Shown here: piece after piece, positions 709 through 36,424 of the stretch
Numbering within the stretch: the stretch's first letter is position 1
Layout of the letters: each line of letters begins with the position of its first letter
From: Chlamydiales bacterium
GTDB lineage: Bacteria; Chlamydiota; Chlamydiia; Chlamydiales; JBFIDQ01
Assembly (NCBI GenBank): GCA_041603795.1
Contig: JBFIDQ010000001.1
Span: 1-42,211, forward strand
Reading direction: 5' to 3'
Length of the DNA: 42,211 bases
The notes under the pieces: model-generated
The model's database searches: none
Told to the model about the DNA's origin: nothing
Seen by the model: the letters and a program-made list of their open reading frames with translations, nothing else
Made by a program: the position numbers and the translations under genes

Positions 709-1125
709 TCAAGCACTATCAATGTCGTAATTAAGACTCATTCTATGCGCAACCGCATCAAGGAGATTATCGAACCAACCATAATGCTTATCTTGTACTC
801 GAACTTGCCACCTTCCAGATTTTTTACTGTAACTTACCCCCACAACGCCAGATTTATTGTCTTTACGCAGCCCTCTATTTATTGTGTTAAGACCTCTTGT
901 GGCGAATCTTAAATTGGATTTTCTATTGTCTTTTTTATCCCTATTAATGTGATCGATCTCAGTACCTTCAGCGGCGCCCATAATTAACCTGTGCATGAGA
1001 ATTCCCCGCCCTGTCGGCTCTTTGTGTTTTTTCCTAGCTTTTGTTCTAAGATACCCCTCGCTAGTCTCATGCCACGTATATGAACCAACAAGTTCCTCAT
1101 CCTCTTTATCGACTAAATACTTCAC
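709..1125 (-). CDS. HNH homing endonuclease with AP2-type DNA-binding domain
   Basis: HNH core is EIDHINRDKKDNRKSNL. The AP2-like segment is SGVVGVSYSKKSGRWQVRVQDKHYGWFD. The start overlaps the RNR stop by 4 nt. Confidence 0.8.
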   Translation of the reverse strand: MKYLVDKEDEELVGSYTWHETSEGYLRTKARKKHKEPTGRGILMHRLIMGAAEGTEIDHINRDKKDNRKSNLRFATRGLNTINRGLRKDNKSGVVGVSYSKKSGRWQVRVQDKHYGWFDNLLDAVAHRMSLNYDIDSA

Positions 1126-3731
1126 GAGCTGCAGGCCCCTCCTTTACCGGCTATCGAGCAAATTTCGTGCTCTGCGTATTCTACGCCTTGATGCTTTACA
1201 GCTTCTTCGTAGGGAATCTCTGTTATAGGTTGACCGCCCCTGCTGCCATCCGGATAGGCCGTAAACCCCCTAATTTTAGGCGCGTACTTGCCAAGTATTG
1301 CAGCAAATTCTTTAACCCTTCCTTCGTTGTTGCTTTTGCTGCCCCATTCGGCAAGATTGATAGTGCTGGAGATAGCCATATCCACATACTCTTGCACCTC
1401 TGCCTGGAACTTGATCCGCTTCTCAAAGTCCTCGGACAGGGTAACGGACGTTTCGATTTCATCTGGTTTAATCCCTAGTTCTTCTACCAAGTATCTGGCA
1501 GTAGCATCCACAACAAACTGATACTTCCACTTTGTTCCGTCAACAAGATAGCGACGTTTGTATGCTTTATAGATGACAGGCTCTATTCCCGATGTTGTTT
1601 GCGCGAGGATAGATATTGATCCTGTTGGCGCAATTGCTCGATAAGCGATGGGTCGCGAGCATCCCACCCAGTCAGCCAAGTCATTAGCACCTCTCTCTGA
1701 GCCGGATTCATAGACCTCCAGCCACTTTTTGAGTTCGGGTGTAACCGTGTAGTCACTTCCTCGTTTGAGCAGCCATTCGTGGATACCCATAAGTCCAAGC
1801 CCAAGCCGACGGTTCTTTGCCCGGACGTCATACACTTTCTGGTAAGGCAAATCTGCTCTAAGGGTTCCGCAGATGAGGAACTTACTGGCGAGGTTGACAA
1901 CCGTTTCAAATTCTTCCAGGTCATCAATAGCACTGAGGTTAACAGACGCAAGGTTGCATACATCAGAGTCATCCTCTGATGTAACCTCTGTACAGTTTGA
2001 AACGATAACCCCTTCAGCCATAAAAGCATGTTCTTCTACCCCAACATCGCAACAAAAAACATCAGAAAATCCATAATCCTGAACGCTAATGACCTTAACG
2101 GCTGCTTTTCTGTACGGTATGCAGTGCCTGATCTTTAGTCTTGCAGTTGGAATAATTTCTGAGAATCTGTTTACGAATTCAGTGTAAACCGTCAAGGTGT
2201 ATCCTTGAAGGTTTCCATAAGAAGATATGCCAGACGTAGAAATTCCAGAAAGAATCCCTACCTGCTCCAGCAGTCTGCGCACCCCACACAAGAAGTCATA
2301 ATTCTTATTTGATAATCTAACCCTGTTTTGCTCCTTAAAATAGTTTCCGTCAGCGTCGAACAGCCCAGCAAGGAATGACACTTGTTGTGCAGTACCAGAT
2401 AAATATAAATCATCAGGAAATAAGACTTTACTTCTGTTTGATAACAACTTATCGTTGATAGTATATACTCTAGTATAGCCCCTTGAATCATTTGCTGTAA
2501 CAGAAGAAAGCATTGACTTATCAAAATTGTTCAAGCATTGCTTACTTTCTTGCGTGCAAAATGTAACTTCGGCGCGAGGATATTTTTTACTAAAACTTCC
2601 ATCACCATATATGTACCCAAGAGTGTAATAATCCTCTGTCAAAAATGAATCAATTTCCTCACACAATGATATTTTTAGTGAGTCTCCAGTGACAAGATCC
2701 TTCGCGGAGACTTTTTCATCGCTAGAAAGAAAGAATTCGTGCTCTGGATCCGCTACTATCTCCCTTCCACCCGACATCAGCACTCGAAGGACTGGAACGT
2801 GCTCCCCAGTGCGTTTAAATACAGTCTTGGCCCACTGCTTTCCAGTCCATACCTTAACGGTTTCGCCAACAATATCCTTTATTTGTCTGTAGCCGTCAAG
2901 AGTAAAAACATACGTCTCTGGCCCAAGAGGGGCGTTACGAAGCGTTTCATTCTGCTTGTCACCAAAGTTAAAAGAGAATCCAGGCTCCCCGGTCATCATA
3001 GCCTGCTTGCAGTTCTCCATGAAGATCTCATCTGTGTGCGGAGACATCATGTCACGCCACGCATCATCATAGTTCACAGATATATTAGTATGATCTAATG
3101 GAGCAGGGAAGTTAAAGTCTGTCTGCTTAACATCCCATAGGTTAAGACCACTGTCTCCTACCGGGTGATCCTTCCAGTTTTTTATTCTGAGGAAGTCCCG
3201 AATATCTCCGTGCTGCCAGTTAAGTGATGCGTAAATTGCGCTTCTGCGAGACCCGCCCTGCATAACGTTTCGGCCAATTTCATTGACTGAACACATGAGA
3301 GGGAGCGGCCCGGAGCTAAGTCCACCAGTTCTGGACAGAGTGACACCGCCTTCTCGTAGGATGGAATAGTCAGTTCCAATTCCACCGCCAGACATGAGAC
3401 AATCGGAAGATACTCTGGCAATCCTTCCCCATTCTTCACGGGTATCCTCTTCCGCTTTAAGTAGGTAACAATTGTTCCAATAATGTGCGTCCCGTCCTGC
3501 GTAGTAGAGATATCTTCCACCTGGAATAAACTTTCTCTGATAAATAAGCTCAACGATTTCGTCTCTGTCCCCTTGGGACATGAGCGGATCGCTACGCCCG
3601 TTAAATGTTCCGCATACGTCGTCGACCAGTCGGTTGGCAAGGTTCCACCATGTATCATTGTTCCCTTGGGCGTACTTGTTGTAGAAGATGGACTCCGCGA
3701 ACTCGTTTCGGAAGTTGTTTTTTCTTGACAT
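1122..3731 (-). CDS. nrdJ: class II (adenosylcobalamin-type) ribonucleotide reductase, interrupted by an intein
   Basis: The N-terminal region reads FIPGGRYLYYAGR...CLMSGGGIGTDYS...GGSRRSAIYASL. After removing residues 268-579 the active site reads LRNA-CTEV, matching the N-x-C-x-E motif, followed by VCNLASVNL. An AGGAGA-like RBS (GGAGAAATGAAAGA) precedes the ATG. Confidence 0.9.
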   Translation of the reverse strand: MSRKNNFRNEFAESIFYNKYAQGNNDTWWNLANRLVDDVCGTFNGRSDPLMSQGDRDEIVELIYQRKFIPGGRYLYYAGRDAHYWNNCYLLKAEEDTREEWGRIARVSSDCLMSGGGIGTDYSILREGGVTLSRTGGLSSGPLPLMCSVNEIGRNVMQGGSRRSAIYASLNWQHGDIRDFLRIKNWKDHPVGDSGLNLWDVKQTDFNFPAPLDHTNISVNYDDAWRDMMSPHTDEIFMENCKQAMMTGEPGFSFNFGDKQNETLRNAPLGPETYVFTLDGYRQIKDIVGETVKVWTGKQWAKTVFKRTGEHVPVLRVLMSGGREIVADPEHEFFLSSDEKVSAKDLVTGDSLKISLCEEIDSFLTEDYYTLGYIYGDGSFSKKYPRAEVTFCTQESKQCLNNFDKSMLSSVTANDSRGYTRVYTINDKLLSNRSKVLFPDDLYLSGTAQQVSFLAGLFDADGNYFKEQNRVRLSNKNYDFLCGVRRLLEQVGILSGISTSGISSYGNLQGYTLTVYTEFVNRFSEIIPTARLKIRHCIPYRKAAVKVISVQDYGFSDVFCCDVGVEEHAFMAEGVIVSNCTEVTSEDDSDVCNLASVNLSAIDDLEEFETVVNLASKFLICGTLRADLPYQKVYDVRAKNRRLGLGLMGIHEWLLKRGSDYTVTPELKKWLEVYESGSERGANDLADWVGCSRPIAYRAIAPTGSISILAQTTSGIEPVIYKAYKRRYLVDGTKWKYQFVVDATARYLVEELGIKPDEIETSVTLSEDFEKRIKFQAEVQEYVDMAISSTINLAEWGSKSNNEGRVKEFAAILGKYAPKIRGFTAYPDGSRGGQPITEIPYEEAVKHQGVEYAEHEICSIAGKGGACSS
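1995..2930 (-). mobile_element. intein (312 aa) with LAGLIDADG homing-endonuclease domain, inserted immediately before the catalytic Cys of NrdJ
   Basis: Block A-like PLGPETYVFTLDG. Two LAGLIDADG motifs, LGYIYGDGS and LAGLFDADGN. Block F/G reads DVFCCDVGVEEHAFMAEGVIVSN followed by Cys+1. Boundaries come from restoring the extein N-x-C-x-E motif. Confidence 0.85.
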
Positions 3732-5860: not shown

Positions 5861-6301
5861 TCAAGACCTAATAGCTATTATTTTCTTAAGGAATTCAAGT
5901 CTTGCTAGGCACTCAGACACATTGGCATCCCCTGAGTAATTATTAAAGAAGTATTCGACTGCTCTGTTGTAAGAAGGCCACCACTGGCAGCCAGCTTGGT
6001 AGATCCAGTCATCGCCATCCTGCCAAGCAAAAAACTGGAATGAACGGCCGTCACTACCACCGTCTACAAGGATAGTTGATGTTATATCAGCCCTGTAAAG
6101 ATGAGCGCCCCTAAAATCTGCAAAATCAAGACGGGCCTTATGCAAATTTGTCCGGGTCATGTACGCATCATGAAATGTAGCGCCCTCAAGATTCGCCTTG
6201 TAAAACGATACATCTGTAAGAATACATCCAGAAAAGTCTGCTAAGGCCAACGAAGCGGACGAGAAATCAACGCCAGCAAGGTCTTGCCCTGAATAGTTCA
6301 T
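5861..6301 (-). CDS. pentapeptide-repeat protein with non-repeat C-terminal domain
   Basis: Contiguous A(D/N)LXX-type pentapeptides are visible (DLAGVDFSSASLALADFSGCILTDVSFYKANLEGATFHDAYMTRTNLHKARLDFADFRGAHLYRADIT). The ATG at 6301 is preceded by GGAGG. It is the first gene downstream of the leftward promoter. Confidence 0.8.
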   Translation of the reverse strand: MNYSGQDLAGVDFSSASLALADFSGCILTDVSFYKANLEGATFHDAYMTRTNLHKARLDFADFRGAHLYRADITSTILVDGGSDGRSFQFFAWQDGDDWIYQAGCQWWPSYNRAVEYFFNNYSGDANVSECLARLEFLKKIIAIRS

Positions 6302-6321
6302 AATACCTCCATTGCCAAACA

Positions 6322-6350
6322 AGTATAACACAACATGTACCATTTGTCAA
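6322..6350 (-). promoter_or_regulatory. sigma70-type promoter (leftward early operon)
   Basis: The minus strand reads TTGACA, a 17-nt spacer, then TATACT, with TGT immediately upstream of the -10. It lies 20 nt upstream of the pentapeptide-repeat gene ATG. Confidence 0.7.
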
Positions 6351-6394
6351 GTAGTAAAGCGATCTTTATTATAGAGACCAAGAGTAAATAAGAC

Positions 6395-6423
6395 TTGACT
6401 TTTGAGTCCAGTTGTGTTATAGT
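6395..6423 (+). promoter_or_regulatory. sigma70-type promoter P1 (rightward)
   Basis: TTGACT (6395-6400), a 17-nt spacer, then TATAGT (6418-6423) preceded by TGT. It is a 36-nt near-copy of the P2 region. Confidence 0.7.
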
Positions 6424-6429
6424 AGATAC

Positions 6430-6625
6430 AGAGCATTTGGTCAGCTTTATTGGCTTCAGTCCTGAGCAGCAGACACAGAAAGGGACAAACTAAAACAAAT
6501 CCAAGCTCTGATTACCCCCGTCAACTTGGTCGGTGCCGCAGCCTAGCTGTGTTAGCGTACGTGTTCCGAATCGGTTTCAGCTAGCAGTACCTAGCACCGT
6601 GTAGGGGGGAATCGTGTCTGAATAA
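6430..6625 (+). ncRNA. candidate structured non-coding RNA or long 5' leader between duplicated promoters
   Basis: There is no ATG on the + strand from 6424 to 6756 and no track ORF on either strand. Nested helices are 6470-6476/6614-6620, 6510-6519/6604-6613, 6531-6536/6594-6599 and 6543-6549/6578-6584. Confidence 0.35.
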
Positions 6626-6633
6626 AAAAGTGC

Positions 6634-6662
6634 TTGACATTTGAAGCCAGTTGTGTTATAGT
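6634..6662 (+). promoter_or_regulatory. sigma70-type promoter P2 (rightward early operon)
   Basis: TTGACA (6634-6639), a 17-nt spacer, then TATAGT (6657-6662). The alignment CTTGACaTTTGAagCCAGTTGTGTTATAGTAGcTAC differs from P1 at 4 positions. Confidence 0.7.
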
Positions 6663-6756
6663 AGCTACGTATATTGACAAGTGCAGAGGTTTCTACACGT
6701 TGGAATACTCAGACAGGTTTACTAGTTTCTACCTATCCTACGGCCAAGAGGAAGGC

Positions 6757-7233
6757 ATGCAGAATGCTTCCAAGGGTGGCAGGGGTGTCTGTTTCGAGGC
6801 ATGGAACAAAGCCATCAAACGGCATAAGGTAGACGAGGAAGAATTCTCCAAGAGGATCCGGAACGGTTACGTCTCGTACATGCGCAATCGTCAGGCAGTA
6901 CGGAACACTGGCGAGTTCGTCCCTCACCTTAAGATGCTCTCATCCTTCCTGAACCAGGACGTATGGGACGACATCTTTGAGGAAAGCACAGGAGAACTGC
7001 TATTAAAGGCTGTCTCCCTGAATTGCACAGAGCAGGGCTGCAAAGAAGAAGCGTTGTACGTCACTGACGTAGAGAAGCTATGCCAGCGCCACTACCTAGA
7101 GAAGAAGGTTTATCCGGAGCAGGGGGAGACTATCCGTATAATGAAGGAAGTTTACGGCCCTCCTGATGGACAGACATGGAAACAGTGGGCAATCGGAGTT
7201 GTAAAAAAGATCGGGGTTTTTGAAAATGCCTGA
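6757..7233 (+). CDS. hypothetical protein (first gene of rightward early operon)
   Basis: The track ORF begins at a TTG inside the P2 -35 box, which is implausible. The ATG at 6757 is preceded by AGAGGAAGG. The translation is MQNASKGGRGVCFEAWNK.... Confidence 0.7.
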   Translation: MQNASKGGRGVCFEAWNKAIKRHKVDEEEFSKRIRNGYVSYMRNRQAVRNTGEFVPHLKMLSSFLNQDVWDDIFEESTGELLLKAVSLNCTEQGCKEEALYVTDVEKLCQRHYLEKKVYPEQGETIRIMKEVYGPPDGQTWKQWAIGVVKKIGVFENA

Positions 7234-7438
7234 TTTCAAATGGATGCAGCATGGCCGCAGGATGGAGACACCCATAGACATCTACTGTAAGCGCTGCCTG
7301 CGCCACCACAAGAAGGCTGAGGTACATCAGTCGGTCAAGGGTCAAAGATACTACCTGTTAGCAGGCCCGCACATGACGACACACAAGAGTTTCGATGAGG
7401 CTAAGGAGAGATTGAATGATTACGCAAGAACAGGCTGA
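7226..7438 (+). CDS. hypothetical protein
   Basis: The ATG at 7226 overlaps the end of the upstream gene. The track uses TTG at 7220. Confidence 0.55.
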   Translation: MPDFKWMQHGRRMETPIDIYCKRCLRHHKKAEVHQSVKGQRYYLLAGPHMTTHKSFDEAKERLNDYARTG

Positions 7439-7733
7439 AGAAGCTCTGGAGAAGATTATAACCAATTCTTCTAAGATAGCCAAGTCTAAGGCCGAAAAGG
7501 AATATCTGGAGGAATACCGAAAGTCAAAGAAAGCCAGCCTAGTACAGCAGGCAAAAGGTACTGTCCTAGAGAAGGAATCCTATGCTTATGCCCATCCTGA
7601 TTATATAGGCGTGCTGGAAGGGCTCAGGGTGGCCCATGAGGAATATGAGCGCCGACGTTGGATGATGGTAGGCTGGCAGACCACCATAGACGTATGGCGT
7701 ACACAGGAGTCAACCCGGAGAGCGCACGGGTGA
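7416..7733 (+). CDS. hypothetical protein (charged, helical-looking)
   Basis: 105-aa ORF with a 23-nt overlap with the upstream gene. Confidence 0.6.
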   Translation: MITQEQAEEALEKIITNSSKIAKSKAEKEYLEEYRKSKKASLVQQAKGTVLEKESYAYAHPDYIGVLEGLRVAHEEYERRRWMMVGWQTTIDVWRTQESTRRAHG

Positions 7734-7984
7734 AGCATAGAGCCCCCAATGTCCTCCCTGAGTTCGAGGATATATATGAAAATCAGGGGTTTGTACATTG
7801 TGTATGTCCTGATGGTCACTACTTCAAAAACCAGGAATTCGCCGCCGGCACAGTAAGTTGTCCAACATGCGGGAAAGAGACTGAACGCATGCAATATAGC
7901 ACGCCAATGCACGAGGAAAGAAACGATCGATCCTACCTGCTAGACGAAGATTTACCTTACTTGGAAGAAGAAGATGAAGCTTAA
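7730..7984 (+). CDS. small Cys-rich (zinc-ribbon-like) protein with acidic tail
   Basis: The ORF is open from 7658. GTG at 7730 forms a GTGA overlap with the upstream stop and has GGAGA 8 nt upstream. The translation contains CVCPDGH...CPTCG. Start choice is uncertain. Confidence 0.5.
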   Translation: MKHRAPNVLPEFEDIYENQGFVHCVCPDGHYFKNQEFAAGTVSCPTCGKETERMQYSTPMHEERNDRSYLLDEDLPYLEEEDEA

Positions 7985-8402
7985 TCCTTGGGACATAGCC
8001 TTCTCCAGAGCCATCAGGGAGTCGTATAACTGGACTTGCGCTATATGTGAGATAGAGGACACAGAAGCTCAGTTCACGGGCAGGAGCAGGGCTATGCAGT
8101 GTGCTCACGTATTCTCAAGGAAGCACAAGAATGTCAGATGCCACCCTGATAACGCCGTCTGCCTCTGCGCCCGTTGCCACGCTATCATGACGGATGCCCC
8201 TACAGAGTGGGGATTATGGGTAGTAAACCACCTAGGTGAGGGCCGCTATCAAATGCTGCTCGAACGAAAAAACGATATTTCAATCAAGTATTCCAAACAG
8301 GATATGAGTGACATAGCGAATCATTACAGGCAGGAATATGCCAGGATGGTAAACGAAAAGATGCACGGAAAACAGAACGTTGAGTTAGTTTCATATGATT
8401 AG
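7974..8402 (+). CDS. putative NinG/HNH-like zinc-binding nuclease
   Basis: The pattern FSRAIRE..CAICE....CAHVFSRKH...HPDNAVCLCARCH resembles the Cys/His arrangement of lambda NinG-type proteins. This is from memory and was not searched. Confidence 0.55.
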   Translation: MKLNPWDIAFSRAIRESYNWTCAICEIEDTEAQFTGRSRAMQCAHVFSRKHKNVRCHPDNAVCLCARCHAIMTDAPTEWGLWVVNHLGEGRYQMLLERKNDISIKYSKQDMSDIANHYRQEYARMVNEKMHGKQNVELVSYD

Positions 8403-8406
8403 GGTA

Positions 8407-8435
8407 TTGACAAACACTAAAATCTATGATATACT
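8407..8435 (+). promoter_or_regulatory. sigma70-type promoter P3
   Basis: TTGACA (8407-8412), a 17-nt spacer, then TATACT (8430-8435). It sits in the 50-nt gap upstream of the muramidase gene, and a GGAG RBS follows. Confidence 0.65.
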
Positions 8436-8452
8436 GGTTATGGAGAAAATAA

Positions 8453-9019
8453 ATGGCATCTTTCGAAAAAGCCCTAAAGCCAACACTTGCGGCAGAGGGC
8501 ATCTACTCAAATGATCCAGTAGATCCGGGCGGTGAAACCTATTGCGGTATCTCTCGCAAACACAATCCGGACTGGTCAGGCTGGAAGGATATTGATGCAG
8601 GGCATCATCCGTCAGCGGACAGAGTAGCAGAATTCTATAAACCCCGCTATTGGGATGTCTTCCGGGGTGATGAGCTAAGTTCCGACATGGTGGCTCAATT
8701 GATGTTCGACTTTGCGGTCAACGCAGGCGTCCACAGGGCCGTCCAGCAGGCTCAAAGGGCGGCATCAGTGGTTGCCCTATACTCGGGCGAGGAACGCCTC
8801 ATACAGGACGGGGGATACGGCCCTAAGACCCACAGAGTCATAGCGAGCATAGGTGCTCATGAGGTTATGTGGGCCGTATACTACCTCGGAAGCAACATAG
8901 AATACTATCAGTCTATTATTCTCCAGAACGAAAGATTGTCAAAATTCGCTAAGGGATGGGCAAACCGCTGCATCCACAAGCTTGACAAGATACTGTCGGC
9001 ATGGAAACGATCCTTGTAG
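8453..9019 (+). CDS. GH108-family N-acetylmuramidase with PG_binding_3-like C-terminal domain (endolysin candidate)
   Basis: The N-terminal motif LAAEGIYSNDPVDPGGETYCGISR matches the EGGY-x-NDP-x-DPGG-x-T-x-GI signature of glycoside hydrolase family 108. DGGYGPKT appears later. Confidence 0.85.
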   Translation: MASFEKALKPTLAAEGIYSNDPVDPGGETYCGISRKHNPDWSGWKDIDAGHHPSADRVAEFYKPRYWDVFRGDELSSDMVAQLMFDFAVNAGVHRAVQQAQRAASVVALYSGEERLIQDGGYGPKTHRVIASIGAHEVMWAVYYLGSNIEYYQSIILQNERLSKFAKGWANRCIHKLDKILSAWKRSL

Positions 9020-9222
9020 CAGAGACGGTAAGACTGACATGCGAGGGTTACGCTCGCTTGGTAGAGGTTATTGGCGCTCAGGAAGACCCAGCAGCCTATA
9101 TAACACAGCTAATCAGGTTTGTTCCGCAGTTGCAGCATGAGATTCTGAGGGCTTATAGCTTCATCCTGGAGCACGTAGACGGGAACAGCTACTATCTGGC
9201 TTACCAGTCATGCAGCATATGA
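9001..9222 (+). CDS. hypothetical protein
   Basis: 73-aa ORF that overlaps the muramidase gene by 19 nt. Confidence 0.55.
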   Translation: METILVAETVRLTCEGYARLVEVIGAQEDPAAYITQLIRFVPQLQHEILRAYSFILEHVDGNSYYLAYQSCSI

Positions 9223-9389
9223 ATAAGGGCAGAAAACAGAAAATAAAGAACGGCTATGAATACGACGTACTTTATGGCCGTGACATCTACAACTACCTGA
9301 AGCGCCCTAAAGTCGCAAAAAGCATAAAGCGAGCGATGAATAAAAGGGAGCGGGTAGACTGGAAACAAGGCGTCCACACCTCCATTTAG
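9219..9389 (+). CDS. small basic protein (56 aa)
   Basis: My own translation gives MNKGRKQKIKNGYEYDVLYGRDIYNYLKRPKVAKSIKRAMNKRERVDWKQGVHTSI. It has an ATGA overlap with the upstream stop and is below the track cutoff. It replaces the antisense track ORF 9201..9455. Confidence 0.5.
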   Translation: MNKGRKQKIKNGYEYDVLYGRDIYNYLKRPKVAKSIKRAMNKRERVDWKQGVHTSI

Positions 9390-9398
9390 GAGGTTGCT

Positions 9399-10124
9399 TT
9401 GAAACATTTCTTCATTCCAGATACTCAGGTTAAGCCCGGAGTAAACACAGACCATCTTGAAGCCGCTGGTAACTACATAGCGGACAAAAGACCGGACAAG
9501 ATTATCATGATAGGCGACTGGTGGGATATGCCATCGCTGTCAAGCTACGATAAACCGGGCCAAGAGGGATGGGAAGCCAAGGACGTAGCGGCAGACTTCG
9601 CGGCCGGGAACGCGGCCATGCGCAGGATGATGGGACCAATCCTGAACGCAAAAGACTATCATCCGATGCTTATTTTCTGCATGGGGAATCACGAAGTCAG
9701 GCGAGAAAGAGCCTGCGCCGATCCCATGAACAGGAAGTTTAAAAGCTACCTCTCTGCGGATAATTTCGATCTGGACGGCTGGCGCGTCATTCCATACCTG
9801 AAGCCAGTGAAGGTAGATGGGATTCTATACTGCCATACCTTCGAGAACGTCCGTGGCATGGTAGAAACAAGGATAAAGACCGTAGGCAACAGTTTCGTAG
9901 CCGGTCATGAGCACACATACATGGTCGGAGCTTTCCATACGTCGGAAGGTCAGCGCAGAAGGGGGCTAGTATGCGGATCCTTCTACCAACATGACGAGCA
10001 CTACGTAGGCTGGCAGAAAAACAAAAAGACTTGGCGCGGATGCTTCCAGCTAAACGAGGTCAAGAACGGCGATTACGACCTACTCGAACTGAGTCTAAAA
10101 TATCTAATGAAAAGCTGGTTGTGA
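9399..10124 (+). CDS. calcineurin-like metallophosphoesterase
   Basis: Motifs present are IMIGDWWD (GDxxD), CMGNHE (GNHE) and AGHEH. The start is TTG, 5 nt after GGAGG. Confidence 0.8.
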   Translation: MKHFFIPDTQVKPGVNTDHLEAAGNYIADKRPDKIIMIGDWWDMPSLSSYDKPGQEGWEAKDVAADFAAGNAAMRRMMGPILNAKDYHPMLIFCMGNHEVRRERACADPMNRKFKSYLSADNFDLDGWRVIPYLKPVKVDGILYCHTFENVRGMVETRIKTVGNSFVAGHEHTYMVGAFHTSEGQRRRGLVCGSFYQHDEHYVGWQKNKKTWRGCFQLNEVKNGDYDLLELSLKYLMKSWL

Positions 10125-10438
10125 CGCCTAAAGACATCAAGAAGATCCCGCTATCACTCATAGTATGGGACGATATAGTCACAGAGAACAGCGGCTGGTT
10201 GGCCTTAGAGGACATAGACAGTTTGGAATCCGTCACTTGTTTTACTCCCGGCTGGATAGTCAGGGAGGACGGATATAATTATTACATAGTACAAAATTGG
10301 GGAGAACATAAGGGTATCTTTGAACCGGCTGTAGATTGCACAATCCCTAAGGGATGTGTCAGGTCTATAGTAACCTTACGGAAGCGATGGAATGGCGGTA
10401 ATAGACGATCTGATACAGGCACAACTGGAGAAATCTAG
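10121..10438 (+). CDS. hypothetical protein
   Basis: The ORF is open from 10031. GTG at 10121 forms a GTGA overlap with the upstream stop. Start choice is uncertain. Confidence 0.5.
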   Translation: MTPKDIKKIPLSLIVWDDIVTENSGWLALEDIDSLESVTCFTPGWIVREDGYNYYIVQNWGEHKGIFEPAVDCTIPKGCVRSIVTLRKRWNGGNRRSDTGTTGEI

Positions 10439-11735
10439 GGGCCTGCCTGCGCCTTCCATAGTAAAGCCTTCAAGAAAGAATGGTCAAGTAACCGTTGAAT
10501 CTCTCATAGCGCAAGGTCTCAATCCCTCCTACATAGAAAATTACGGCGACCTGCCCTATGAGCGATTCAATCCGGATCAGTACGGCCGAGGTGTAGCAAA
10601 TCTAAAATCATTTGACCAGGCTCGTGGGGTATTCAATCAATACCTAAAGATCAAACCCGGACAGCCAGGATACGACAACGCGCAGAAGTTCAAGAAACTA
10701 CTTCAATCGCAGTTCGGCATAGCGGACCCTAATAAAGCCACTGACCGCCAGTTATTCGAGGCGATGGATCTGGCCCTTCGTGATTCTCAGAAAGACAATC
10801 AGAAGGAAAACGGGTTCGGGTCCAGCATTCTAGGCAAGGCCCTCGGATTTCTAGCGCCTATAGCGGGCGGTATAGTTGGCGGACCGCTTGGTGGAGCCCT
10901 AGCGGGAGGTCTGACATCCGGTCTAACTTCCGGCAGTCCCATAGCGGGCCTTGCGGGAGCGGCGGGTGGATTTTTCGGCGGCTCTGTTTTCAATAAGGCG
11001 CTAGGGGTTGGAACCGGCGGATTGCTCGGACTCCCAGGTGGATCGCTACCCGGTCAAGCTATCAATGCCGCTAAAGGCGTGTTCGGATTCAATCAAGGCG
11101 GGTTTACTAATCCGGCAGGCTTAGGACTAAGCCCGGAGCAATTGTACAATCCTGCCAGCCTGGGTGGCTCACCGGCTAACCTGACGCAGTCACTTGCTGG
11201 CGGTGGCTTCACTAACGCGGCTGGGCTCGGCCTGGATGCTGCGCAGCTATTTCGGCAGCCACTAAACAATATCACCAATTATGCCGGCGGTGGATTCTTT
11301 AATCCGGATGCGCTAGGGATCGACGCTACGGATCTTTACAATCCGCAATCGCTAGGCGGTCCGGCTCCGTCTAGCAGCGTTAAAGACATCTTGAAAGAGA
11401 TCGGCAAGGGTATCACCAGTCTATCCGGCGGACAGCAGCAGCCTATAACGCAACGATCGACAGGGTTTAGCGTGCCGCAACTGTCACTTGCTGCGGCTAC
11501 ACCGACAGCGCAGACGATAGGCGGTACACTTCCGCAGATAACCTTTCCTCAGAATACAACTGCCGCTAGACCCGGCCTAACGGACAACCTAAGCGCGCGC
11601 CTGTTACAAGATAGATTCGGCGGTCCTGATCTGAAGGGGATCGGAAACTTTAACGCTCAAGCCAGGGGCCAGGGACTATCCGGCCCAAGCGAGAGACGCG
11701 GTCAGCGCAGACAGCAACTAGCTGCACTGGTTTAG
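10392..11735 (+). CDS. glycine-rich protein with glycine-zipper segment and three internal repeats
   Basis: A GxxxG-rich hydrophobic stretch is present (GKALGFLAPIAGGIVGGPLGGALAGGLTSGLTSG...). Three copies of GG(G)F(T/F)N-x-x-x-LG(L/I)-x-x-x-x-L(Y/F) lie at about 11094-11365. Confidence 0.75.
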   Translation: MAVIDDLIQAQLEKSRGLPAPSIVKPSRKNGQVTVESLIAQGLNPSYIENYGDLPYERFNPDQYGRGVANLKSFDQARGVFNQYLKIKPGQPGYDNAQKFKKLLQSQFGIADPNKATDRQLFEAMDLALRDSQKDNQKENGFGSSILGKALGFLAPIAGGIVGGPLGGALAGGLTSGLTSGSPIAGLAGAAGGFFGGSVFNKALGVGTGGLLGLPGGSLPGQAINAAKGVFGFNQGGFTNPAGLGLSPEQLYNPASLGGSPANLTQSLAGGGFTNAAGLGLDAAQLFRQPLNNITNYAGGGFFNPDALGIDATDLYNPQSLGGPAPSSSVKDILKEIGKGITSLSGGQQQPITQRSTGFSVPQLSLAAATPTAQTIGGTLPQITFPQNTTAARPGLTDNLSARLLQDRFGGPDLKGIGNFNAQARGQGLSGPSERRGQRRQQLAALV

Positions 11736-11742
11736 GATCCCT

Positions 11743-11775
11743 ATAGTAAGGGTTGGCAGCCTCATAGTAAGGGTT
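11743..11775. repeat. direct repeat ATAGTAAGGGTT x2, 21-nt period
   Basis: Identical 12-mers at 11743-11754 and 11764-11775, just downstream of the last rightward early gene. Confidence 0.8.
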
Positions 11776-11800
11776 TTCAAATCCGCCCAGGCCTACCGCA

Positions 11801-11868
11801 ACAGACCGAAAAAAAAATTTGAGTAATTGAGAACTATTCTCAGGTTAAGAACCATTCTCACAGACCGA
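11801..11868. repeat. iteron/operator-like repeat set with A9 tract
   Basis: ACAGACCGA occurs at 11801-11809 and 11860-11868. AGAAC(T/C)ATTCTCA occurs at 11830-11842 and 11848-11860, and each contains an AGAA-n3-TTCT inverted repeat. An A9T3 tract lies at 11809-11820. Confidence 0.7.
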
Positions 11869-12089
11869 TTCTAAGCCCGTATAAGAGGCGCAAAAATAAA
11901 CCCTAGGCCTACTATTGATTTGGAATAAAAACCCGTCACAAGCGCTTAGGTTAGCTAATACGCGGCCGTATAACGTCCGAATTGCTTTTAAGGTAGGATG
12001 CTAGCGGGTTTATGGTATCGGCCAGCGGATGAGATTATGCGAATCCTGGATTGATCCGTGACACGGCGAGATCTACCGGATTGACAGGC

Positions 12090-12117
12090 AAAAAAATACC
12101 CGCACTGTGGCGGGTAT
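12090..12117 (-). terminator. Rho-independent terminator (minus strand)
   Basis: The minus strand reads ATACCCGC-CACAGT-GCGGGTAT followed by TTTTTT. It lies 17 nt downstream of the stop of 12135..12320. Confidence 0.75.
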
Positions 12118-12134
12118 AAGGTTAGCGCGTTGGG

Positions 12135-12320
12135 TTATCGTTCGAGGTAGTTATAAACCTCCGACACAAGGGAGCCATCATAAACCCGATCACGCTCGAT
12201 CCATACTTCAACTGCAGACCATTGATCGATCTCTAATTCTGCGGCTAATTGTTCAACCCGATCAAGCGCATTGTTAAATTCGCTGATCGCCTCGTGGAAT
12301 TGGTAGTCAGAATTATGCAT
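12135..12320 (-). CDS. hypothetical small acidic protein
   Basis: 61-aa ORF, the last gene of the reverse cassette. It overlaps the upstream gene by 8 nt. Confidence 0.6.
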   Translation of the reverse strand: MHNSDYQFHEAISEFNNALDRVEQLAAELEIDQWSAVEVWIERDRVYDGSLVSEVYNYLER

Positions 12321-35153: not shown

Positions 35154-36424
35154 GTATAGCAGCAGCAAGAGGTCTTCCTGGGATTAGGGCTTCGCAGCAG
35201 CTTGCCCTGCAGCAGCAACAGCACAAGGCCGCTGAACAAGCCAAGCTGATTGAGCGCGCAACGTCAGGCATTGACTCTACCATAGAGACAGCCGCTAAAA
35301 TTATGGAGAACTACCTTAATGGTGGTGAGGGTCGTAAGCCTACGGATGAAGCTGTAGCTAAAGTGCTTGCACCTCTTGAGGCTCAGGTATCACAGACGGC
35401 AGGCCCGCTGTCTCAGATGACAGGGATTAATCATCAGGCGATTGCTCAAGGAAAGTTTCAGGCTATTGGAAGCATGGTCACGCCTGAGCAAAAGAGGCAG
35501 CAGGAAGCTCTTGATACCAAGGCTGGCATTACTGCTGTAGCTGAAGGTAATGCTGAGGTTGTAAACACCGTCGCAGATACAGAGGCCAAGGCTGCTGATG
35601 CTGAAAGAACAGCAGAAAGAAACTGGCTTAATGAGAACCCGACATACGAAGGCAACGTTCCTGTTTATAATCCTCAGACAGGACAGACGGAAATGGCTCG
35701 CCGCGTTACTAGCGGAGAAGGAACCTATCTTGAATTAGGCGGCAAGCCTATGACTGCCCCGTGGATCGAGGCTGATGAAGTCAGTATTGGCATTCAGGGT
35801 TCGGACCTGACAAAACCGACAGAGAATCTTCTGCAGAAAGGCATAGTGGAGATTCAGGATGTTAAAGACCTGACTCAGAAACTTAAAGAGTCGTTTGATC
35901 CAAGTTTTCTTAATGTTGTCAAGCGTGCAGGAATTAACATTCTCGCAGAAGCTGAGAAGTACGGTTTTGAGTTAGACCCTGAGCAGAAACAGCTTGTAGA
36001 AAGAATGGCGGTATTTGTCCGTAGAAACTTTAAGCTGCTTAACACCTACGTCCGTCAGATTTCGGGTGCGCAGGTTACTGACAAAGAGGCTGAGCGCATC
36101 CTGAATGAACTGCCTAACTTCGGTCTGTCGCCTACAGAGTATGAGGCTGCAATGAACGATGTTATGAGAGACATCGCCTTGGCTCAAGCTAGGAAGCAAT
36201 GGTTCCTGAGAAAAGGAATTACGCTTGAGGCGCCTTCTATAGAGGATGTTGAAAGCGGAAAAGCGGAGTCTTTGGACGCGCCTATTGGGCCTGAAGGGAG
36301 GCCTATTACTCTTGAATCAATGGAGGGTATCATAAAAGACAGGGCGCGAGAGATACATAAGGAGCGCGGCAACATCAGTGTTCAAGAGGCGTTCGATCTA
36401 GCTGAAGAAGAATTTGGAATTTAA
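35150..36424 (+). CDS. internal virion protein-like (synteny call)
   Basis: 424-aa Gln/Ala/Glu-rich helical protein. Confidence 0.55.
   Translation: MSIAAARGLPGIRASQQLALQQQQHKAAEQAKLIERATSGIDSTIETAAKIMENYLNGGEGRKPTDEAVAKVLAPLEAQVSQTAGPLSQMTGINHQAIAQGKFQAIGSMVTPEQKRQQEALDTKAGITAVAEGNAEVVNTVADTEAKAADAERTAERNWLNENPTYEGNVPVYNPQTGQTEMARRVTSGEGTYLELGGKPMTAPWIEADEVSIGIQGSDLTKPTENLLQKGIVEIQDVKDLTQKLKESFDPSFLNVVKRAGINILAEAEKYGFELDPEQKQLVERMAVFVRRNFKLLNTYVRQISGAQVTDKEAERILNELPNFGLSPTEYEAAMNDVMRDIALAQARKQWFLRKGITLEAPSIEDVESGKAESLDAPIGPEGRPITLESMEGIIKDRAREIHKERGNISVQEAFDLAEEEFGI

Follow-up and report, generated by a model that had tools for sequence, protein, structure and literature searches.

Phage T7 carries three E. 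coli promoters, A1, A2 and A3, which start at 498, 626 and 750 ahead of a first gene at 925, and an RNase III site, credited to Dunn and Studier in 1983, is said to lie before its gene 0.3. Tandem promoters are a recurring theme in phages, and in LUZ100 (phi2/phi3) and LUZ7 two closely spaced co-directional promoters serve one gene and go with high expression (PMC10134795); for E. coli, tandem co-directional promoters serving one gene at high expression are reported (PMC8830795). A different kind of early-region element is found in HK022, where put is a ~70-nt RNA of two adjacent stem-loops, putR lies ~270 nt downstream of PR, and putL is known for the sigma-dependent pausing of polymerase at −10-like sequences (PMC9378689).

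The DNA analysed here (the window, 42,211 nt in total) is a tailed-phage genome or a near-complete contig. It encodes a large terminase, a portal, a major capsid protein, an endolysin and a DnaB helicase, as well as two DNA methyltransferases and a class II ribonucleotide reductase (RNR); the closest protein matches for the capsid protein and the terminase are 36–43% identical. Transcription diverges at ~6350, with minus-strand genes running leftward and plus-strand genes rightward. Just to the right of this point two similar promoters, P1 and P2, enclose a spacer of about 200 nt that a preliminary description of the sequence had read as highly structured and as a candidate phage non-coding RNA or regulatory leader. 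On the analysis below, this spacer (6430–6632) probably belongs to a tandem array of early promoters, in which it forms the untranslated leader of the P1 transcripts, and it looks like an ordinary tandem-promoter leader and not like a new structured RNA. Coordinates of all features are collected in Table 1.

Table 1. Positions of promoters, spacer features and the first rightward gene in the window
Feature	Position	Strand	Sequence or basis
Promoter site	712–684	−	TTGACA-17-TATAAT
PL2 promoter	5864–5836	−	Motif search
PL1, leftward early promoter	6350–6322	−	TTGACA-17-TATACT with TG; back-to-back with P1
P1, upstream rightward sigma-70 promoter	6395–6423 (36-nt unit 6394–6429)	+	TTGACT-17-TATAGT, extended −10
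Non-coding spacer, probable extra 5′ leader of P1 transcripts only	6430–6632	+	No ATG, no SD-preceded start, non-coding codon usage, no terminator-like site
Long-range hairpin of the preliminary description	6470–6620	+	Three of four helices thermodynamically plausible; energy not beyond chance
Decayed third promoter core AGCCTAGCTGTGTTAGCGTA	6540–6559	+	15/20 positions identical to P1, spacer positions included
A-tract AATAAAAAAGTG	6621–6632	+	Directly upstream of P2 −35
P2, downstream rightward promoter	6634–6662 (36-nt unit 6633–6668)	+	TTGACA-17-TATAGT, extended −10
Shine-Dalgarno (SD) sequence AGAGG	6685–6689	+	Serves TTG 6700
First rightward early gene, 177 aa	6700–7233	+	TTG 6700; public call ATG 6757, 158 aa
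Promoter site	8407–8435	+	Motif search

Promoters were located by searching the window for the motif TTGACW-N14-TGTTATAST, which returned six sites in 42 kb (0.19 expected). P1 and P2 match 10 and 11, respectively, of the 12 sigma-70 consensus positions, lie 239 nt apart and share 32 of 36 nt (89%, spacer included) in a repeat unit of the form CTTGAC-N12-GTTGTGTTATAGT, so that the duplicated promoters of the preliminary description are indeed near-identical units. Between −10 and start codon there are 37 nt for P2, 20 nt for PL1 (ATG 6301), 20 nt for PL2, 17 nt for the site at 8407 and 6 nt for the site at 712; leftward leaders come to ~14–20 nt. Every copy of the cassette except P1 has a gene directly behind it; the −10 of P1 is 276 nt from the start codon, compared with 6–37 nt for the five other copies. 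Comparison of the sequences downstream of P1 and P2 showed no similarity past the promoter, and the idea that the P1 unit arose by duplication of the entire P2 unit and later divergence was therefore rejected. With six sites and one relic (described below), the window contains a reusable 36-nt early-promoter cassette in a phage lineage without sequenced relatives. In IMG/VR the promoter motif gave 19 single matches, all in unrelated phages, and a lone match there to an 18-nt promoter core, on a 318-kb contig with no proteins in common with the window, was discarded. At the minus-strand site 712–684 the ATG (677–675) follows only 6 nt after the −10, and to judge from this spacing its transcript would be leaderless or nearly so; the protein that it would specify (MNSNLIVLLLIACGVYAV...) is small and hydrophobic.

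The publicly annotated start of the first gene in the rightward early operon was revised. A full HMMER search with the 158-aa protein of the public call returned distant relatives of up to 47% identity, whose N-termini (M-x-YSDxFxxFWxxYGExE) align residue for residue with the codons of 6700–6756 (MEYSDRFTSFYLSYGQEE versus MPPSDKFLNFWTYYGEEE); the gene thus starts at TTG 6700, and 6700–6756 is coding. Three cysteines are invariant in the family, and 8 of 10 aligned members, the window protein included, align with PHROG 270 ‘replication initiation protein’ over its C-terminal part. An AlphaFold model of the protein (pLDDT 80) had no PDB neighbour by Foldseek. A direct repeat, GACA-N9-GTTTCTAC, occurs twice (6676–6696 and 6712–6732, 36 nt apart) and covers the SD sequence and the first codons of this gene.

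A third copy of the promoter core was found within the spacer. When the P1 20-mer AGTCCAGTTGTGTTATAGTA was searched at up to 5 mismatches on both strands (84 kb), only the true promoters and 6540–6559 were returned; a binomial estimate puts the chance of such a match in 200 nt at ~8 × 10−4. The copy lies on the strand of P1 and P2, midway between them, and keeps the TGn together with T1, A2 and T6 of the −10 (TAGCGT, 6553–6558), while its −35 (TCGGTG) is not usable. Some of the bases that it shares with P1 fall within the promoter spacer, a pattern that favours common descent over convergence. Start positions were placed at ~6430 for P1 (a presumed start), ~6565 for the relic and ~6669 for P2, giving start-to-start spacings of 135 nt (P1 to relic) and 104 nt (relic to P2).

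The spacer ends in AATAAAAAAG. The preliminary description had stressed that the fold proposed for the spacer is followed by this tail and not by a T tract; the tail indeed contains no terminator-like site, and its A-tract is better read as an UP element of P2. The stretch AAAAAAGTG (6624–6632) lies directly upstream of the P2 −35. The proximal UP-element consensus, attributed to Estrem et al., is reportedly AAAAAARNR, which we take AAAAAAGTG to fit, making the tract a candidate UP element of P2. P1 has a similar A-rich stretch, TAAATAAGA, at the equivalent position.

The nearest plus-strand ATGs are at 6335 and 6757, in agreement with the earlier statement that none lies between P1 and 6757, and the 422-nt gap between them is the second longest in the window. 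The probability of finding no ATG is 0.10 for the 202-nt element alone, which is unremarkable, 0.022 for 6431–6756 (the span tested as P1 leader), which is mildly unusual, and 0.005 for the whole intergenic stretch; the depletion in 6431–6756 is as expected for a transcribed untranslated leader. No SD sequence precedes any start codon in the spacer. A pattern scan of the plus strand in 6395–6757 found no terminator-like site, and a rut-like C>G bias in the element is modest (90th percentile only). Since nothing of terminator type lies between P1 and P2, P1 transcripts should read through P2 as a long leader, which is what had been suggested before.

P1 and P2 are two co-directional near-consensus promoters with a non-coding spacer and no terminator-like site between them, and in layout they correspond to a tandem sigma-70 early-promoter array. 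The likeness to A1, A2 and A3 of T7 lies in same-strand strong sigma-70 promoters ~100–135 nt apart within a non-coding stretch that precedes the first early gene, and in long untranslated leaders from the upstream promoters, predicted ones in the case of the window. The two arrays differ in that the middle copy is decayed here (poor −35, −10 TAGCGT), that the T7 A1 leader is significantly structured whereas the leader in the window has no excess structure, and that there is no sequence homology; moreover, the window phage has a divergent leftward early operon on the same promoter cassette. The LUZ promoters, unlike those of the window, are phage-RNA-polymerase promoters before SSB-type genes; here they are host-type and precede a replication-initiation-like gene.

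The array of P1, decayed middle copy and P2 would drive the rightward early operon through the host sigma-70 RNA polymerase. It would have arisen by duplication of the ~36-nt promoter cassette, with the outer two copies keeping their function and the middle one decaying. Transcription would initiate at both outer promoters: P2 transcripts would have a ~30-nt 5′ UTR ending at TTG 6700, and P1 transcripts, because nothing terminates them before P2, would carry ~240 nt of additional untranslated leader. The A-tract with which the interval closes would serve as the UP element of P2. The net function would be extra early transcription from two strong promoters, with P1 elongation possibly interfering somewhat with P2. 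Several local features thereby receive simpler readings than a structured RNA: the A-tract that of an UP element, the inner stem that of a promoter relic and the ATG depletion that of an untranslated leader. Against a plain tandem leader stand the 276-nt distance of P1 from the start codon, which leaves room for a leader function, the persistence of the outer 7-bp helix in the predicted ensemble (see below), and the fact that the spacer has not been lost by recombination between the 36-nt direct repeats; the locally over-represented words CAGACAC and CTAGC could also, from their distribution, be binding sites.

The fold on which the structured-RNA reading was based consists of four nested helices, all of which are complementary: CAGACAC/GTGTCTG (6470–6476/6614–6620), CGGTGC/GCACCG (6531–6536/6594–6599) and CTAGCTG/CAGCTAG (6543–6549/6578–6584) perfectly, GATTACCCCC/GGGGGGAATC (6510–6519/6604–6613) with one mismatch. 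In the thermodynamic ensemble the three outer helices are favoured (probabilities of ~1.0 for 6470–6476/6614–6620, 0.5–0.99 for 6510–6519/6604–6613 and ~0.65 for 6531–6536/6594–6599) and this part of the nested structure stands; the innermost helix (0.03), one arm of which (CTAGCTG, 6543–6549) is part of the promoter relic, does not. The structure as drawn has an energy of −36.1 kcal/mol, compared with −47.7 kcal/mol for the minimum free energy (MFE) structure, a gap of 11.6 kcal/mol. Folding predicts a single branched hairpin of ~150 nt.

MFE z-scores were calculated against dinucleotide-preserving shuffles (200 shuffles each for 6430–6630 and 6468–6622). The 201-nt element (6430–6630) gave z = −0.19, with 84 of 200 shuffles folding as well, and its reverse complement z = −0.16; the best case, 6468–6622 (155 nt), gave z = −1.39 (18 of 200 shuffles), the inner 108 nt (6508–6615) z = −1.34, and the span from the P1 start to past ATG 6757 (6430–6760) z = +0.13. 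Across 843 plus-strand windows of 155 nt the genome mean was −0.49 (sd 1.26), and 22% of these, almost all coding, had z as low as the best window of the element or lower. The T7 promoter A1 leader gave z = −4.04 with the same tool, which shows that the test is able to detect real structure. The energy of the spacer, being indistinguishable from that of shuffles and ordinary at the level of the genome (best window at the 22nd percentile), leaves the structured non-coding RNA reading unsupported, and the term ‘highly structured’ does not apply. Rfam 15 gave no match at gathering score and, at E ≤ 10, a single irrelevant lncRNA match outside the element; ARAGORN found no tRNA or tmRNA gene. The leader can form some long-range pairs, like any sequence of such composition, and nothing points to selection for a particular fold or to the production of a discrete RNA. 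The result is mainly a correction: where an intergenic region is rich in promoters, a nested hairpin drawn by hand may look convincing and yet not be distinguishable from chance. Plus-strand 155-nt windows with z from −4.4 to −5.0, far below the element, start at 36151, 20651, 9251, 30301 and 3751.

A functional cis-acting RNA in the P1 leader is unlikely on these data, whether it be a put-like element that modifies RNA polymerase, a pause element, a site of processing or a stabilising structure by which the flow from P1 into the early operon would be set. In its favour are the unusual length of the leader and the three favoured helices, and the −10-like TGnTAGCGT (6550–6558), ~120 nt into the transcript, recalls the pausing at putL (PMC9378689). 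The low structural z-scores and the lack of an Rfam match speak against it, and so do the comparisons with described elements. HK022 put, a cis-acting RNA, resembles the spacer in lying just past an early promoter, and the distance of putR from its promoter is comparable to the length of the P1 leader. In HK022, however, each early operon has its own put, which works on terminators further along the operon. In the window no second copy was found in the leftward operon and no convincing plus-strand intrinsic terminator that could be suppressed was found in 6300–11700 (rho-dependent ones being beyond prediction). The two adjacent stem-loops of the ~70-nt put module are likewise missing, the prediction here being a single branched hairpin of ~150 nt. 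Comparison of 6300–6800 by blastn with 50,697 phage records (assumed to include HK022) gave no match. The suggestion of a put-like element is not supported.

The lambda nut sites share with the spacer the position in an early leader; they differ in having a boxA, an adjacent boxB-type hairpin and a second site in the other operon. The sequence previously called loosely boxA-like, AGCTCTGAT, has 4 mismatches to the consensus used (YGCTCTTTA), and no site with up to 2 mismatches lies on the plus strand of 6431–6632; in the window as a whole such sites number 196 (221 expected) and are not commoner than in shuffles. Neither the MFE nor the centroid structure has a boxB-type hairpin 3′ of 6514, where the sequence enters a long-range helix, and no N-like or other antiterminator protein was recognized among 20 proteins scanned. 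With no leftward second site either, the nut-like proposal was abandoned; none of the specific nut or put features that could be looked for was found. If the leader did have a function, that would make it a regulatory RNA specific to this lineage, for which the present analysis gives no support.

A role at the level of DNA, either as clustered sites bound by a phage or host regulator or as a replication origin, is improbable for this interval between the divergent early operons and beside a replication-initiation-like gene. CAGACAC occurs at 6470 (+), 6614 (−) and 6785 (−) and CAGACAG at 6710 (+); three exact CAGACAC fall within 457 nt compared with six in the rest of the window (corrected p ~0.03), and CTAGC/GCTAGC occurs four times in 202 nt (6543–6595, ~50 nt; corrected p ~0.008) even though the genome as a whole avoids CTAG (79 observed, 164 expected). 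The PHROG 270 match of the downstream gene family and the cumulative GC-skew minimum at 5–7 kb would suit an origin. The word enrichments are, however, marginal and post hoc, and two of the CAGACA sites lie inside coding sequence; the element has no iteron arrays and no AT-rich block (51% A+T, ~53% for the genome), and the skew turns because the direction of transcription switches at the same place. In the whole window CAGACAC/CAGACAG is found 21 times (9.7 expected), including a site at 5914. Near the early promoters the sites are grouped into two inverted pairs, one of which is the outer stem of the hairpin, and the word could, by its distribution, be recognized by a protein.

A lineage-specific cis-acting RNA or RNA/DNA pause module was also considered, in which the relic would pause the sigma-70-bound polymerase ~120 nt into the transcript and the helices around it would form while the polymerase pauses and alter elongation or stability of P1 transcripts; we regard this combination as very doubtful. 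If it held, two promoters with identical core sequences would have different outputs. More improbable still is a discrete trans-acting sRNA of ~150–200 nt freed from the P1 transcript by processing: P1 is a strong predicted promoter without a nearby gene and the long closing helix could define processed ends, but there is no terminator, no excess structure and no Rfam family, complementarity within the genome does not exceed chance (best match 11 nt, E = 1.6), and no homologue was found in any collection searched. That the spacer codes for a small protein with a start codon other than ATG has next to no probability, since its only sizeable ORF (TTG 6450–6584, 44 aa, starting 26 nt after the P1 −10) lacks an SD sequence, scores lower in codon usage than every 44-codon window of real genes and has no PHROG match, so that the earlier non-coding reading holds.

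The tandem-promoter leader has no detectable relatives in the collections covered. Blastn of 6300–6800 against the 50,697 phage records gave no DNA-level relative and blastn of the element against plasmids gave nothing; exact or gapped patterns of the element had no match in IMG/VR, JGI metagenomes or GTDB genomes, and no second copy of any part of it was found elsewhere in the genome. Just one other contig has the downstream gene (Logan SRR29257391), and its sequence is 100% identical to that of the window. Neither IMG/VR nor a database of 5.8 billion proteins contains close relatives of the flanking 158-aa and pentapeptide proteins. The best DnaB match is 38% identical, and the best major capsid protein match (36%) belongs to a temperate phage of the P22 type whose early region differs from that of the window; CRP-3 is not syntenic. 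Relatives reached through RNR or DnaB have no early-region genes in common with the window, and the RNR relatives (63 loci) share with it only RNR, g9399 and g105. Distant homologues of the downstream gene lie directly behind another gene, inside an operon and without the upstream element, which is therefore not a conserved companion of the gene family; blastn and nhmmer of the element against 184 fetched loci (2.4 Mb) found nothing.

Further observations concern other parts of the genome. The RNR gene (1122–3731, minus strand, 869 aa) is matched by phage RNRs over only 63% of its length, in two pieces, and residues ~300–580 carry Pfam LAGLIDADG_3 and intein splicing domains, because of which the class II RNR is predicted to contain an intein with a homing endonuclease; two IMG/VR contigs have the RNR in the same long form. 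The 105-aa (7416–7733) and 241-aa (9399–10124) proteins, the latter with a weak metallophosphatase match, are found repeatedly beside the RNR gene, in dozens of IMG/VR viral contigs that have no other relationship, which suggests a mobile or co-selected nucleotide-metabolism module. The longest ATG-free run of the plus strand measures 690 nt (11308–11998), and a convergent non-coding gap of ~580 nt (11735–12313) contains a minus-strand terminator at 12117–12096 with a strong hairpin and a T-run.
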